The notes under the pieces: model-generated | What the model was told of the DNA's origin: nothing | Databases searched by the model: none | The model's input: the letters and a program-made list of their open reading frames with translations, nothing else | Part shown: positions 3,186-22,365 of the stretch, piece by piece | How positions within the stretch are numbered: the stretch's first letter is position 1 | Layout: each line of letters begins with the position of its first letter | Program-made: the position numbers and the translations under genes | Virus genome (UHGV): UHGV-1292713 | Strand: one strand, 5' to 3' | DNA from: a virus | Length of the DNA stretch: 30,697 bases

Positions 3186-3938
3186 TTATCTCGTCACCTT
3201 TCTCAATTGTGCTTCAGCGAATGCTTCTTCCTGCCAGCACTTTGTTACCAGTTTATCAATGACGTCTGCATATCCTTTGTACCACTGATAATCAGTCAGG
3301 TCTGGTACCAGCTTCTGGACATGACGTCGTGCCAGTGTGGTCGGTAAACGACTAAACCGGTTTCCATTGCAACGCCCACAAATCTTATAAACAGGCGCGC
3401 CATGAAGCCGGGTTCTTTTTTCATCCAGGACAATGCCTTTACCCTTACACCCTCTGCAAGCCGTGCTGACTTCTCCCTTACCATGGCAATGCTGACATAA
3501 TTCCTTCACCCACTCTTCCTTGATAACAGATTCCCCGCTTCTGGAGTGTTTCACCACTTCGCGCAATACACTATGAAATCCAGTACCAGCACAATGCTCA
3601 CAGCGAGCCTTACTTGCCGCAGACCTGGAATAATCAGCAAAGGCAAAACTCACAAGGTAAGGGATGATCTGTAACCGGGTTTCTTCACTCAATTTGTTCA
3701 ATGTCGGGTTATCCATTGCCATCGCGTAATTGAGCAGACCTTCAATCGCAAACTGAGGATCCTGAACACCAACTTTTGCCAGGAATAAGGCAAACCCAAG
3801 CGGTGCTTTCGACTGCACCATCCCCTGCGCAGCCATCACATCCGTAATCGTTAAACCACCTGAGCCTGTCGCCGGTGCGTCATCGCTCAATTTTGGAGAT
3901 TTTGGGGAGTAATATTTTGGTAAGGCTTCAAGGTTCAT
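3186..3938 (-). CDS. Late-gene antitermination protein Q (long, phage-82-like type)
   Basis: 250-aa ORF with clustered Cys/His zinc-binding motifs (CEHCAGTG, CQHCHGKG, CRGCKGKG, CGRCNG); sits between nin-region genes and a terminator-bracketed late cargo gene. Confidence 0.75.
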   Translation of the reverse strand: MNLEALPKYYSPKSPKLSDDAPATGSGGLTITDVMAAQGMVQSKAPLGFALFLAKVGVQDPQFAIEGLLNYAMAMDNPTLNKLSEETRLQIIPYLVSFAFADYSRSAASKARCEHCAGTGFHSVLREVVKHSRSGESVIKEEWVKELCQHCHGKGEVSTACRGCKGKGIVLDEKRTRLHGAPVYKICGRCNGNRFSRLPTTLARRHVQKLVPDLTDYQWYKGYADVIDKLVTKCWQEEAFAEAQLRKVTR

Positions 3939-6200: not shown

Positions 6201-6523
6201 ACTTTCAGGCCCCTCTCATGTAACCAGTGGGCTGCACGCAGCCTGGCGTTTTCCTCACCGGCAAGCAGTGCGCGGATAATCCCGACCGCCTCGCTGTCGT
6301 CGTCCTTCACCGCGGTATGAAGAGTTATCCCCCGGGCCACGCCACGCTTTATCGTGATGACGCTTTTTTTCTCCAGTGCGCGAAGATGCTCCACCGCTGC
6401 ATTCACCGAACGGTATCCCAGCATGGTTGCCACCTCCTGATTGGTTGGCGGAAAGCCACGTTCTTGCTGGTAAGAAATCAGCATATCCAGCACCTGCTGC
6501 TGGCATTGAGTTAACGTCGTCAT
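6197..6523 (-). CDS. LexA-N-terminal-like winged-helix DNA-binding protein
   Basis: 108-aa ORF; TQCQQQVLDML...GFPPTNQEVATMLGYRSVNAAVEHLRALEKK resembles the LexA DNA-binding domain; no S24 peptidase domain. ATGA-type overlap with the neighbouring gene. Confidence 0.5.
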   Translation of the reverse strand: MTTLTQCQQQVLDMLISYQQERGFPPTNQEVATMLGYRSVNAAVEHLRALEKKSVITIKRGVARGITLHTAVKDDDSEAVGIIRALLAGEENARLRAAHWLHERGLKV

Positions 6524-7173
6524 GCCGCCATCTCCCTGACCAGTTTTTCCGCCTGCTGGCGAACCTGCGCCAGAAAGGCCTCACCACATGCCTCAAGTTC
6601 ATCGCGCCCGATGTAGCTGATTGCCGGTCCCTTCCAGGTCTTGTCGAAAACAGCAATAGCACCAGCGAAGAAAGCGCCTGTCGGCACCTGCTTCTCGTCC
6701 TTCGGGATAAACCAGGCTGGCAGTTCAAAACCAATACGCCCGCGAATAAAAGCAATATGGTCTGCATCTTCCGGCCACCACACTTCGCTGGTGGCAGCTT
6801 TGATCAGGAAAACATAGCGCCCGCCTTTATCACGCATGGCACTGGCATGCTTCATGATGTAACGCATGCCGGTGATGTATTGCCCCTCATGCTGACTGGC
6901 GCGGCTGTACGGGGGATTACCAAAGGCAGCACCTTTAAGCTCCGCAAGACGTTCTGACCAGTCATGCGCCAGCGCGTTGTCTTCCGCAGTGTAATACGCG
7001 GCGCATTTGGCGTTATCACCATCAGTAAACAGATCCAGAACAAACGGGCCAAACAGGGTGTTAATTCCCCAGAAAATGTTGTCCGGCGTGCGCCACTGAT
7101 CGCCCACTTCCTTCAGTTCATGGGCTGGTTTGTTCCGCAGCTCCACCAGCGCCTGGCAATATTTATTACTCAT
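6520..7173 (-). CDS. Phage N6-adenine DNA methyltransferase (Dam-like, NPPY motif)
   Basis: ORF-track frame 6520..7206; start assigned to the ATG at 7173 (MSNKYCQ...), which overlaps the upstream stop. Motif FGNPPYS. 217 aa. Confidence 0.75.
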   Translation of the reverse strand: MSNKYCQALVELRNKPAHELKEVGDQWRTPDNIFWGINTLFGPFVLDLFTDGDNAKCAAYYTAEDNALAHDWSERLAELKGAAFGNPPYSRASQHEGQYITGMRYIMKHASAMRDKGGRYVFLIKAATSEVWWPEDADHIAFIRGRIGFELPAWFIPKDEKQVPTGAFFAGAIAVFDKTWKGPAISYIGRDELEACGEAFLAQVRQQAEKLVREMAA

Positions 7174-9755: not shown

Positions 9756-9826
9756 TATGTACCTCCGGTGTACATATTACATGATTGAAATGAACCTTCA
9801 AGATACTTGTACCTTAACGGTACAAG
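9756..9826. promoter_or_regulatory. Divergent cro/cI control region with two TGTAC-N7-GTACA operator palindromes
   Basis: atatgtac-ctccggt-gtacatat (about 9757-9779) and cttgtacc-ttaac-ggtacaag (9806-9826) between the cro-like start (9751) and the cI-like start (9842). Confidence 0.5.
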
Positions 9827-9841
9827 GGTTTTAATTTCGTT

Positions 9842-10516
9842 ATGAAAACAATCCATGACATCCGGCGGTCTAACGCCAGAAAACTGAGAGATGGTGTTGG
9901 AGGGAATTCTTCCTTTGCCACTATGATTGATCGCGAGCCAACCCAGACCAGCAGGTTTATGGGAGATGGTGCTACTAAAAATATCGGTGACAGCATGGCA
10001 CGACACATCGAAAAATGTTTCGACCTGCCTGTCGGATGGCTCGATCAAGAACACCAGACAACGAACATCACAAAAAAACCTGATGTTTCAATCACTAATA
10101 AACAAATCACATTAGTCCCTGTCATATCATGGGTACAGGCCGGAGCATGGAAAGAAGTTGGATATTCTGAGGTTGATTTGAGCACAGCAGAAACGTATCC
10201 CTGCCCTGTACCCTGTGGGGAAATGACTTATATCTTGCGGGTGATAGGTGATTCAATGATTGATGAGTACCGCCCGGGAGACATGATTTTTGTCGATCCT
10301 GAAGTACCTGCCTGCCACGGTGACGACGTTATTGCATTGATGCACGATACAGGTGAAACCACCTTCAAAAGGTTGATAGAAGATGGGACACAGCGTTATC
10401 TCAAAGCGTTAAACCCAAACTGGCCTGAGCCTTACATTAAGATCAACGGTAATTGCTCTATAATTGGAACTGTGATTTTCTCAGGAAAACCAAGAAGATA
10501 CAAAATCAAAGCCTAA
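9842..10516 (+). CDS. cI-like prophage repressor (N-terminal HTH, C-terminal S24 LexA-type peptidase domain)
   Basis: 224-aa ORF; C-terminal RVIGDSM...GDMIFVDPEVP...GDDVIAL...TFKRL is the S24 autopeptidase signature; divergent from the cro-like gene. Confidence 0.8.
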   Translation: MKTIHDIRRSNARKLRDGVGGNSSFATMIDREPTQTSRFMGDGATKNIGDSMARHIEKCFDLPVGWLDQEHQTTNITKKPDVSITNKQITLVPVISWVQAGAWKEVGYSEVDLSTAETYPCPVPCGEMTYILRVIGDSMIDEYRPGDMIFVDPEVPACHGDDVIALMHDTGETTFKRLIEDGTQRYLKALNPNWPEPYIKINGNCSIIGTVIFSGKPRRYKIKA

Positions 10517-10528
10517 TCAATGTTTATG

Positions 10529-10552
10529 AACCTGCTTCGGCAGGTTTTTTTA
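10529..10552 (+). terminator. Rho-independent terminator after the repressor gene
   Basis: aacctgc-ttcg-gcaggtt hairpin followed by a T7 run, 13 nt after the cI-like stop. Confidence 0.65.
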
Positions 10553-10555
10553 TAC

Positions 10556-10583
10556 TTGACAATGTACCTATGAGATACATAAT
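10556..10583 (+). promoter_or_regulatory. PL-like promoter (TTGACA-N16-CATAAT) with an operator-like half-palindrome in the spacer
   Basis: Consensus -35 TTGACA at 10556-10561 and -10 CATAAT at 10578-10583; the spacer contains TGTAC-N7-ATACA, resembling the cro/cI operators. Confidence 0.5.
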
Positions 10584-10661
10584 GTACCCAAGAGAAACAA
10601 CAAACAGGCAGGACGCCCACGAAGTAGCCGCCTGGGGCATATGAAGTCCAGGATGATTCGT

Positions 10662-10691
10662 TAGCAACAAAAAAGCGCCCTACAGGACGCT
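10662..10691 (-). terminator. Rho-independent terminator for the convergent zinc-ribbon gene
   Basis: Read on the minus strand: agcgtcc-tgta-gggcgct hairpin (one G-U pair) followed by ttttttgttg; 40 nt after the stop at 10731. Confidence 0.55.
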
Positions 10692-10730
10692 TAGCTCTTT
10701 AACAATCTGGATATCCACAACAGTAGTAAT

Positions 10731-11222
10731 CTACAGATTGCCGTTAAGTTTTCTGGACAACTCCTCAATGGATGGAGGCGATACGTAATCCGGATTTTTA
10801 TTCATCAGAAACTTATTTTCACAGTGGAGGCACCTGCTTTTATGAAAAAGCTCATCTTCGCTAACCGGGAATGGTTGAAGTATCGATACTATCTTTTGTC
10901 CAAAACATTTTGGGCAAAGATGCATGGTTATGCTGCCACCGTTCACGATTACCTCCTTCGAGTATACAAAAGTACCCGACTCAAGTTGGTTAAGGATATA
11001 GCCTTCCGTCTGAGCCTCAAAGTTTTCGAATTCTGCAATTTTAGCTTTGAGAGAAGCATTTATTTCTTGATAAGAGCCCACCAGTTCAACGAGAGACACG
11101 CATTCGCGCTGAATAGACGCAAGCTTTGAGTTCAGCTCACCAATAGCCGCATTTACTTCAGCTTGAGTTTTTGCCTCGTTCATTAGTTTTGCAATCTGGG
11201 CTGTTTCACGAATAGCCGTCAT
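10731..11222 (-). CDS. Hypothetical coiled-coil protein with C-terminal zinc ribbon, at the locus where lambda carries rexAB
   Basis: Start assigned to ATG at 11222 (MTAIRETAQ...), 164 aa; the ORF-track frame extends to 11510 through non-protein-like sequence. N-terminal ~80 aa predicted coiled coil; CPKC...CLHC pair; AT-rich; own terminator; convergent with cI. Confidence 0.6.
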   Translation of the reverse strand: MTAIRETAQIAKLMNEAKTQAEVNAAIGELNSKLASIQRECVSLVELVGSYQEINASLKAKIAEFENFEAQTEGYILNQLESGTFVYSKEVIVNGGSITMHLCPKCFGQKIVSILQPFPVSEDELFHKSRCLHCENKFLMNKNPDYVSPPSIEELSRKLNGNL

Positions 11223-11534
11223 TGCTGCCGTTAATTCAGCGATCACATTGAATACTCTTATTGTTGTTGGGGATATCCAGATTAACCGAATCCTTGTTGT
11301 TGGGGAATAACCAGGTCCACCTCGCCTGATGTGGCTAAAAGCAGGCACATAACAGCTAAGTATTTTCAACCAGAGAGAATCCTTAGCGTTGTGGTGAATG
11401 CGGCTCAGCGCACGCGGGTTAAGGTTGAGGCTGACAGTCGACCTTCTGTGGATACCCACCCGCCTGGTGTGCAACCTTCGCCAGGCACCGGGAGGCACCC
11501 GGCACCACAAGTTTATGCTGTGTGTAGTCCTGGC

Positions 11535-11580
11535 GGTACCAGTTTGTACCCTTGCTTCCGGCTGGTACCGTCCTTTTTTG
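11535..11580 (+). terminator. Terminator-like hairpin in the early-left leader
   Basis: 8-bp stem ggtaccag / ctggtacc (11535-11542, 11562-11569) with 19-nt loop, followed by gtcc + T6 (11574-11579). Confidence 0.4.
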
Positions 11581-11716
11581 CAAAACAGAGAAGAGCATCA
11601 CCGGACGACGGGCTCATAACCCAATCCATCCGGGCGGCTGCCACCGCAGGTGTTCTTCTCTGTTTTGTGGAGAAACCAACCGACCTTGCAGGGTCGATAT
11701 GATGAGGAGCAGCAAA

Positions 11717-12079
11717 ATGGCTAGCGAACGCAGTACTGATGTGCAGGCATTTATCGGGGAGCTGGACGGCGGCGTATTTGAAACCAAAATCGGCGCAGTT
11801 CTCAGTGAGGTCGCTTCCGGTGTGATGAACACGAAAACCAAAGGGAAGGTCTCACTCAATCTGGAAATCGAACCGTTTGATGAGAACCGTGTGAAAATCA
11901 AACACAAACTCTCATATGTTCGCCCAACTAACCGCGGGAAAATTTCCGAAGAAGACACCACCGAAACGCCGATGTATGTCAATCGCGGTGGTCGCCTGAC
12001 TATTCTGCAGGAAGACCAGGGACAATTACTGACTCTTGCCGGTGAACCTGACGGAAAACTCCGCGCAGCAGGTCGTTAA
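11717..12079 (+). CDS. Hypothetical early-left protein (YfdP-like by recollection)
   Basis: Start at ATG 11717 (MASERSTDVQ...) with GAGGAG Shine-Dalgarno upstream; 120 aa; first gene after the structured leader. Confidence 0.55.
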   Translation: MASERSTDVQAFIGELDGGVFETKIGAVLSEVASGVMNTKTKGKVSLNLEIEPFDENRVKIKHKLSYVRPTNRGKISEEDTTETPMYVNRGGRLTILQEDQGQLLTLAGEPDGKLRAAGR

Positions 12080-20783: not shown

Positions 20784-21101
20784 TATAATAAACTTACTTT
20801 TTTATCATTTTTCCACTTTAACAACATTTTGCTCCACTTTTCCACGACCAAACAACTTGAAATCTGGTTAAAATAACACGCAACACTATTCTTCTTCCTT
20901 GAGTCCGCCCGGAACTCGAAAAACAAACCGAGTTAAGGCCATTTTTCACAAAATCGATTTTGGATCTCACCAAAATTACGGGGTTGCATACGCATTCGTT
21001 TATTTTCGAACGTGTACATACAAATATGTACAAAAATAATCAAAATTATTTTCTGAGATGCATTATGATATGTACACCAATTTCGTATAGAAGATCTCAC
21101 T

Positions 21102-21789: not shown

Positions 21790-22365
21790 CTACGGTAGGG
21801 CTGGCCATTCAATATCCGGTGCAGTTGATGTATCAACACGATTCAGCAACACCCGATACTTTTTCCAGGCTTCCAGCAACAAGGTTTCTTTCTCCGTTGC
21901 GATCTCCAGATCCACAGCATCCTGAAGCGGCGCTATATGCTCACTGGCTACCTGCATCAGGCTGTTTTTTGTTTCTTCCGCCTCCCGGATCCGGAACAGT
22001 TTTTCTGCTTCCGTATCCTTCACCCAGGCTGTGCCGTTCCACTTCTGAAACTCCCCTTCCGGGGATAACCAGGTGACATTTTCCGGTAATGAGCCGAGTT
22101 CAGAAATAAATAACGCGTCGCCGGAAGCCACGTCATAAACCGTTTTACCCCGATGATCTTCAACGAGATGCCACGATGACTCATCACTGTTGAAAACAGC
22201 CACGAAACCAGCCGGAATATCTGGCGGTGCAATATCGGTACTGTTTGCTGGCAGACCTGTATGAGGCGGAATATATGCATCACCTTCACCAATAAATTCA
22301 TTAGTTCCGGACAGCAGATTATAAATTTTTATGGTCCGTGGTTGTTCACTCATTCTGAATGCCAT
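21790..22365 (-). CDS. tfa: Tail fibre assembly protein (Tfa)
   Basis: 191-aa ORF overlapping the stf stop (TAATG); conserved Tfa C-terminus. Confidence 0.8.

Follow-up and report, generated by a model that had tools for sequence, protein, structure and literature searches.

A modular leader RNA with an STnc100/PasD-like core in the early-left operon of an Escherichia coli lambdoid prophage

Background

The RNAs of the STnc100/PasD family are prophage-borne and intergenic, and are found downstream of Q or stx near the lysis genes. Published work on the members PasD1, PasD2 and EcOnc27/sRNA103 describes Hfq-bound small RNAs (sRNAs) that carry terminators, were validated by northern blots and were recovered in chimeras from RIL-seq (sequencing of interacting RNAs after their ligation) or CLASH (crosslinked hybrids, ligated and sequenced), but their functions remain unsettled. 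A different kind of phage RNA is represented by putL and putR of HK022, a lambdoid phage without N; these are two-stem RNAs of about 70 nucleotides (nt) at the start of the early transcripts (PMC9378689), which act in cis by binding the zinc-binding domain of the beta-prime subunit of RNA polymerase and make it resistant to terminators. Phage LLS was reported to be without an N homologue, and its class of phages was suggested to use a put-like RNA (PMC12315714). Here we describe a structured RNA in UHGV virus genome UHGV-1292713, a stretch of 30,697 nt (the window) that as a whole is a lambdoid prophage of Escherichia coli. The region from about 11355 to 11716 (+) is an untranslated leader RNA of the early-left operon of this prophage, composed of three non-coding modules, and it occupies the position where lambda has nutL-N. 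Feature coordinates are collected in Table 1, and loci of the comparative collection are cited by their L numbers where they need to be told apart.

Table 1. Features of the early-left leader and its surroundings in the window
Feature	Position	Strand	Description
Canonical STnc100 copy	362-492 (Rfam span 314-502)	-	Rfam 114.5 bits, model R1 53.6 bits; paralogue of module A
Q-type antiterminator	3186-3938		rightward operon
cI-type repressor	9842-10516	+	Peptidase_S24
cI terminator hairpin	10528-10547		directly before PL
PL	10556-10583	+	sigma-70 promoter TTGACA-16-CATAAT; promoter scan, 11/12 match
Two operator-like repeats AATGTACC..	10561-10579 and 10581-10599		over PL; match the copy in the cI-cro intergenic region, 9757-9807
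Inserted cassette	10673-11283		carries a minus-strand gene; 26-nt inverted repeat, 10704-10729 and 11258-11283
Cassette gene	10731-11246	-	phrog_1244, unknown function; own terminator 10692-10673
P0 hairpin	11355-11387	+	GCUAAG 11355-11360 with CUUAGC 11382-11387; minimum-energy fold
Module A	11389-11510	+	five-helix junction, homologue of STnc100/PasD
P1	11389-11396 with 11503-11510	+	followed by junction AAU
P2	11400-11404 with 11410-11415	+
P3	11416-11461	+	variable domain
P4	11462-11469 with 11479-11486	+
P5	11488-11502	+	CCGGG-AGGCA-CCCGG
Linker UGCUGUGUGUAGUC	11516-11529	+	single-stranded in the fold; identical to nt 62-75 of E. coli RprA
Intrinsic terminator	11532-11580	+	11-bp stem, 11532-11542 with 11562-11572; 19-nt loop; C, then U6 (T6 11574-11579)
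Module B	11581-11667	+	19-bp helix, 11581-11599 with 11649-11667, closing a three-way junction
Module B inner helices	11601-11605 with 11629-11633; 11610-11612 with 11620-11622; 11634-11637 with 11644-11647	+
Start region of yfdP	11668-11716	+	conserved motif UGGAGAAAC, hairpin 11679-11698, ribosome-binding site
yfdP	ATG at 11717	+	first gene 3' of the leader
Genes after yfdP			in order: yfdQ (DUF2303), yfdR phosphatase, DUF551, excisionase (xis), integrase (int)

The leader core is a divergent STnc100 variant

At Rfam gathering thresholds nothing was reported in the leader region; the strong STnc100 match (RF02076) that was reported is the minus-strand copy elsewhere in the window. A permissive search placed STnc100 at 11366-11581 (+) with 39.0 bits (E = 7e-7), and here the leader has the closing helix of STnc100 together with its AAU junction and its CACCGGGAGGCACCCGGCACCA block. 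The homologues in the Salmonella phage ST64B and the Cronobacter phage phiES15, each about 76% identical, were matched independently by the same Rfam model with 35.1 and 40.6 bits, so that three divergent homologues score between 35 and 41 bits (E from 1e-4 to 7e-7). Related loci were gathered from viral contigs (more than 120) and from species-representative genomes (12); they come from Escherichia, Shigella, Lelliottia, Pseudescherichia, Pantoea and Buttiauxella. A model, R1, was built from 17 diverse sequences of the early-left subfamily. R1 scores 117 bits on the core in the window and 103 bits on the copy in the K-12 prophage e14. Because it also finds the canonical STnc100 copy of the window (E = 7e-14), the homology to STnc100 is solid despite the missed Rfam threshold.

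Judged by these similarities, module A is a divergent variant of the STnc100/PasD family that scores below threshold and occupies a genomic position new for the family. In common with STnc100, PasD1, PasD2 and EcOnc27 it has the closing helix followed by the AAU junction and a first hairpin, the invariant CACCGGGAGGCACCCGGCACCA, a P5 that directly abuts the 3' strand of P1, a variable middle section and an intrinsic terminator, and all of these RNAs are prophage-borne and intergenic. It differs from them in lying in the early-left leader behind PL and not among the late genes, in having a P0 hairpin or a boxA-like extension at the 5' side, an RprA-like linker and then module B at the 3' side, in scoring below the Rfam cut-off, and in that some early-left relatives have no terminator. 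An sRNA was among the possibilities raised in the preliminary description of this region, and that suggestion now gains support from homology: a divergent STnc100/PasD member, with a terminator and an RprA-like 3' domain.

The canonical STnc100 copy in the window belongs to the late operon, where it is preceded by a DNA methyltransferase gene (914-1975) and followed by the lysis genes, with the Q gene about 2.7 kb upstream. Each of the two long antiterminated operons of the prophage thus contains one of two paralogous copies.

Structure and covariation of the core

Covariation of the core was assessed over 40 distinct sequences. In an alignment that was fitted to the model, and thus leans towards the modelled structure, 91.7% of the cells are paired and 18 of 28 pairs have changed on both sides; none of 500 shuffles reached the observed score, and slid controls were 28-45% paired. 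P3 was left unmodelled, since the MAFFT alignment of the variable middle is not structural. The changes are unevenly spread: seven of the eight P4 pairs changed on both sides, and P1, P2 and P5 hardly vary. Phages LLS and Kp4866 have a compensated P5, which reads GGUGG-AGGCA-CCACC with an unchanged loop. G-U pairs in the core and in module B put the RNA on the plus strand. As a single sequence, core plus terminator folds in a weakly unusual way (z = -1.7), and for the window sequence the minimum-energy fold with P0 included is the comparative structure.

Three helices had been recognized in the preliminary description, and all three were found again, in longer form. The 6-bp stem gcctgg/ccaggc (11462-11467 and 11481-11486) is the outer part of the 8-bp P4; ggtaccag/ctggtacc (11535-11542 and 11562-11569) belongs to the 11-bp stem of the terminator; and the 16-bp helix caaaacagagaagagc/gttcttctctgttttg (11581-11596 and 11652-11667) reaches 19 bp. 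Related phages show compensatory changes in two of the three, namely P4 and the 19-bp helix (5 of 19 pairs). The start of the leader, by contrast, had been put at 11440, and this must be moved upstream, as the structured region begins at about 11355.

The K-12 copy of the core (L008 2511-2655, in e14 'ymfH') is 93% identical, but its P5, invariant elsewhere, is damaged (CCGGG-GGCACCCGA); as e14 is a defective prophage, this copy may be in decay. A further arrangement is seen in L039, which has tandem cores at 6305-6456 and 6676-6826 (-), 370 nt apart and scoring 114.6 and 36.3 bits. These lie in a context that does not look lambdoid, after a methylase gene and before genes for a small membrane protein and an SPFH-like protein.

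The terminator and its RprA-like linker

The core is followed by a short single-stranded linker and an intrinsic terminator. The position of the terminator is kept and its sequence is not: a hairpin with a U-run is present at this place in ST64B, phiES15, LLS, Kp4866 and the L048 type. The linker is identical over 14 nt to a segment of the E. coli sRNA RprA, with a local alignment score of 28 (shuffles: mean 14.8, standard deviation 2.1). In relatives the identity to RprA is longer, extending over 26 nt and into the terminator in LLS, 19 nt in phiES15, and 16 nt in K-12 e14 and Kp4866. The Rfam RprA model (RF00034) gives phiES15 41 bits against a cut-off of 70 and did not report the window copy. 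Thus the likeness to RprA consists in the linker and in its position just 5' to a terminator; only the 3' domain is common to both, RprA has no five-helix core, and the gathering score of RprA is not reached. The linker is a candidate seed or Hfq-contact segment. Be it through mimicry or common descent, the identity of the 3' domain connects the induction of the prophage with a host sRNA that belongs to the RpoS, biofilm and envelope-stress network.

Two further observations concern RprA (E. coli rprA, L007 173-278). Its nt 52-106 align with the 3' strand of P1, the linker and the terminator of the phage RNAs, and its nt 31-45 (GCAUGGAAAUCCCC) resemble the start of P1/P2 in STnc100 (GCAUGGUGAAUCCCC), a similarity that by itself is not significant. 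RprA may be a trimmed relative of these phage RNAs, or may have donated their 3' domain.

Module B and the start of yfdP

Module B begins directly after the terminator. Its single-sequence fold is clearly unusual (z = -3.9, reached by none of 200 shuffles), and over 10 distinct relatives its 19-bp helix is 95.8% paired, with none of 500 shuffles attaining the observed value. The phages cdtI and mEp460 and the Stx2c phages share only 11531-11720 with the window, and in Buttiauxella and the L127 type the core leads directly to a ..GUGGAGAA.. motif, the hairpin and the yfdP start. Terminator and module B thus behave as one portable cassette. The hairpin upstream of the yfdP ribosome-binding site is likewise kept in position and different in sequence in ST64B, LLS and Buttiauxella.

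By analogy, the most plausible role for module B is in the processing (for instance by RNase III) or the stabilisation of the yfdP message at its 5' end. RNase III sites like those of the lambda N leader and sib are also long, near-perfect helices, and module B, whose helix can be extended to 24 bp with mismatches, resembles them in lying between a regulatory RNA and the first gene. It differs in that the helix caps a three-way junction and does not form a simple hairpin.

The region is not protein-coding

The stretch 11391-11702 is annotated by the Prokaryotic Genome Annotation Pipeline (PGAP) as 'hypothetical protein, frameshifted', and in K-12 the homologous stretch is listed as YmfH. A frameshifted YmfH-like gene is hardly credible as an explanation of this region. 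The spacing between the two invariant blocks takes ten values between 108 and 123 nt, which fall into all three classes modulo 3, and six of these ten length classes have stop codons in all forward frames, so that no frame is conserved across the core. No Pfam family was found for the overlapping open reading frames (ORFs), and the terminator lies in mid-ORF. The one match in favour of a protein is that of a 123-aa ORF to phrog_33599 (62 aa, unknown function), but it covers only residues 82-117, which correspond to the module B part (11574-11682). There the ORF lacks an in-frame ATG, each frame is closed in at least one of the ten variants, and the helix shows compensatory changes. It appears that phrog_33599 was built from ORF calls over the conserved RNA structure, which accounts for the match, and a protein-coding origin was rejected. 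Hence the impression in the preliminary description that this interval contains no convincing ORF was correct, and K-12 'ymfH' and the 'frameshifted hypothetical protein' of PGAP are spurious ORF calls.

The consequence for annotation is considerable. Matches to 11360-11585 were found in 2770 of 5426 complete E. coli genomes, and in 1829 of them over at least 80% of the length. The element or parts of it are therefore present in more than half of the complete E. coli genomes, K-12 e14 included, and its recognition as RNA sets right thousands of gene calls that read 'hypothetical' or 'frameshifted'.

Transcription from PL and the search for N

The sigma-70 promoter downstream of the repressor gene fires rightward and is overlain by two operator-like repeats (Table 1); it is the repressor-controlled PL. 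The module A core lies about 800 nt downstream. Since the promoter scan found no consensus promoter in the interval from the inserted cassette to the core, the leader is most simply explained as being transcribed from PL. The cassette gene is on the minus strand and has its own terminator, and transcription from PL must therefore cross the cassette antisense. A boxA-like tactctta pointed out in the preliminary description is indeed present at 11253-11260 (+), but it lies inside this cassette beside its inverted repeat and is not a relevant boxA. No N-type antiterminator was found among the ORFs tested, which comprised those of the leader, the gene in the cassette and the early-left genes as far as xis. 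With PL in place upstream, it was a fair description that the structured RNA lies where an N gene would be expected.

In K-12, e14 'ymfH', xisE and intE are SOS-induced by DNA damage (PMC11228462), and therefore transcription there covers the region and runs past the terminator without N.

Function of the leader RNA

The mechanism best supported by these observations, and in our view a probable one, is the production of a terminator-generated, Hfq-type sRNA coupled to gating of the early-left operon. Transcription would start at the repressor-controlled PL and proceed rightward through the leader. Those polymerases that halt at the terminator would release an RNA of about 190-225 nt. As with the relatives that have been studied by experiment, its 3' hairpin and U-tail would be expected to bind Hfq, and the RNA to act in trans through base pairing. 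The same terminator would gate transcription into yfdP, yfdQ, yfdR, xis and int, and polymerases that read through would transcribe module B at the 5' end of the yfdP message.

Several observations weigh against this mechanism. With its 39 bits, module A misses the gathering cut-off of RF02076 (47 bits). A loop of 19 nt is atypical for a terminator, and the terminator is absent altogether from subtypes L127/L137, L138, L132, L136, L039 and L111, in which the first gene follows within 30-70 nt of the core. Invariance is greatest in P1, P2, P5 and the junction, paired positions included, and not in the linker, a pattern more in keeping with a partner that recognizes the folded RNA than with a seed-driven sRNA. 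Most of the divergent subtypes have a boxA-like motif that is single-stranded and follows a hairpin. The role proposed for module B is drawn solely from analogy, and nothing relevant was found in the literature on ymfH or yfdP in connection with an sRNA.

The boxA-like motif points to a serious rival, which we hold to be possible though short of probable: a cis-acting, nut-like element, in which boxA and the invariant core assemble Nus factors (NusB/NusE and partners) on the elongating polymerase, shield the long untranslated PL leader from Rho, and let polymerase pass tL and later terminators without N. The terminated RNA would then be a by-product, and the two proposals are compatible. The sequence A(G/A)UGCUCU(U/C) is found in fixed register 3-5 nt 5' to P1 in the subtypes L015, L039, L048, L060, L086, L091, L097, L111 and L127, in cdtI and Kp4866, and in Pantoea and Buttiauxella; three of all these have the full UGCUCUUU. 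Far upstream, about 100 nt into the PL transcript of the window, there is an rrn-type boxA (AGCTCTTTAACAA, 10693-10705, +) with 12 of 13 positions matching; nowhere else in the 30.7 kb does a sequence come so near to the rrn boxA, the next best, at 20812, having more mismatches. A canonical boxA (GCTCTTTAACAA) precedes the core by 680-950 nt in about 40 of about 95 E. coli-type loci (about 680 nt in the window). Moreover, the core invariably precedes the first gene of an operon and is in sense orientation to it, some subtypes have no terminator, no N-like protein is found among the tested ORFs, the leader of about 1.1 kb is untranslated, and e14 reads through to xis/int. Phage LLS, which reportedly is without an N homologue (PMC12315714), carries the same core, the RprA-like terminator and module B. 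Against a nut-like role, the boxA position is occupied in the window copy by the P0 hairpin; in the window, ST64B, phiES15 and LLS it corresponds to the 3' strand of P0. The late-operon STnc100 copies have no boxA, and model searches found no second copy of the core or of the PL-proximal element described below in the PR operon. A terminator-like hairpin lies upstream of the core in ST64B and LLS, and the core is therefore not the sole antiterminator. In addition, rrn-type boxA complexes act mostly against Rho rather than against intrinsic terminators. The comparison with lambda nut and the rrn leader is divided in the same way: in most relatives a structured RNA is immediately preceded by a boxA-like UGCUCU(U/C), and the PL leader of the window contains the canonical GCUCUUUAACAA, but there is no boxB-type pentaloop hairpin and, among the ORFs tested, no N gene, and the boxA adjacent to the core is degenerate in the window.

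A wider proposal, which we consider rather doubtful, combines these elements: core and boxA would be the RNA half of an N-independent device that recruits Nus factors or senses the state of the host, the sRNAs STnc100 and PasD would be its terminated by-products, and their 3' domain would have given rise to RprA by trimming, or would have come from it. If true, the device would let lambdoid phages without N (LLS, ST64B, SfIV and the e14 type) transcribe from PL through tL into xis/int. Whichever reading holds, an STnc100-type RNA stands at the very place where N-less lambdoid phages must solve the problem of early antitermination, a question left open for LLS and its relatives (PMC12315714).

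In the preliminary description a put-like antitermination RNA and a regulated attenuator were also suggested, and neither idea survives comparison. That the core is a homologue of HK022 put is very improbable, even though both are found downstream of an early promoter in lambdoid phages without N and the phage class has been linked to put-like RNA. The HK022 putL and putR sequences (NC_002166) share no motifs with the leader RNA, and models R1 and R2, which represent leader RNAs of the window, gave no match in the HK022 immunity region, which includes the putL/putR regions, at E values up to 10; put homology was rejected on these grounds. The size, architecture and distance from PL also differ, as a five-helix junction of about 120 nt, some 800 nt from the promoter and without a copy in PR, is set against a short two-stem RNA at the transcript start. 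An improbable alternative, though a better one than put, is a riboswitch-like sensor, in which the core, as an aptamer, binds some metabolite or factor of the host and the expression platforms are interchangeable. It would account for the terminator that follows the core in the window and in the ST64B, phiES15, LLS and L048 types, for the Shine-Dalgarno sequence and AUG within 30-70 nt of the core in L132, L136, L138 and L127, and for the invariance of unpaired and paired positions in P1, P2 and P5. Yet the downstream genes are functionally unrelated, no Rfam riboswitch matched, and the members of the family are Hfq-bound sRNAs. P1 and the terminator form together (base-pair probabilities of at least 0.9) and there is no conserved competing helix; in five homologues P1 (0.75-1.0) and the terminal hairpin (0.71-0.99) co-form. 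Competition of the attenuator or riboswitch type was rejected for this reason. The production of a terminator-generated sRNA thus remains the mechanism that we favour.

Other conserved elements of the PL leaders

A second conserved RNA element, of about 65 nt, was found at 10598-10666 (+), directly downstream of PL. It has a closing helix ACGAA/UUCGU (CCACC/GGUGG in L053), a hairpin GGC-AGGAC-GCC and a stem-loop that occurs in five sequence versions. Over 18 sequences 92% of the cells are paired and 8 of 14 pairs covary, with none of 500 shuffles reaching this value. The element is found behind at least seven different promoter/operator types. It is a candidate for a functional put analogue, although its model finds no similarity to HK022 put. 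Phages without it share another conserved untranslated stretch of about 300 nt between PL and the boxA-core region (L006 (cdtI) 2100-2360; L129 (Kp4866-6) 1000-1260). In this group of phages the PL leaders have the look of mosaics, put together from several conserved non-coding modules.

The rrn-type boxA at 10693-10705 follows a hairpin that is antisense to the terminator of the inserted cassette. Between the cassette and P0, at 11318-11350, lies a 33-nt block (CCACCTCGCCTGATGTGGCTAAAAGCAGGCACA) that is kept in phiES15, K-12 e14 and LLS (copies at L005 2397-2430, L008 2458-2490 and L130 1146-1178). In phiES15 and K-12 the minus strand of this block resembles a -35/-10 promoter (TTAGCC-N16-TATACT) for the inserted minus-strand gene, and in LLS the block comes right after PL.

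RNAs of other families were also seen. An isrK/C4-type antisense RNA scores above the Rfam threshold in the replication-gene regions of ST64B (L004 21-97, -, 64 bits) and cdtI (L006 26-102, -, 60 bits), with no equivalent reported in the window. No tRNA or tmRNA was found in the window, and the Rfam family IS009 is matched there over its full length at 21824-22022 (-) with 216 bits.

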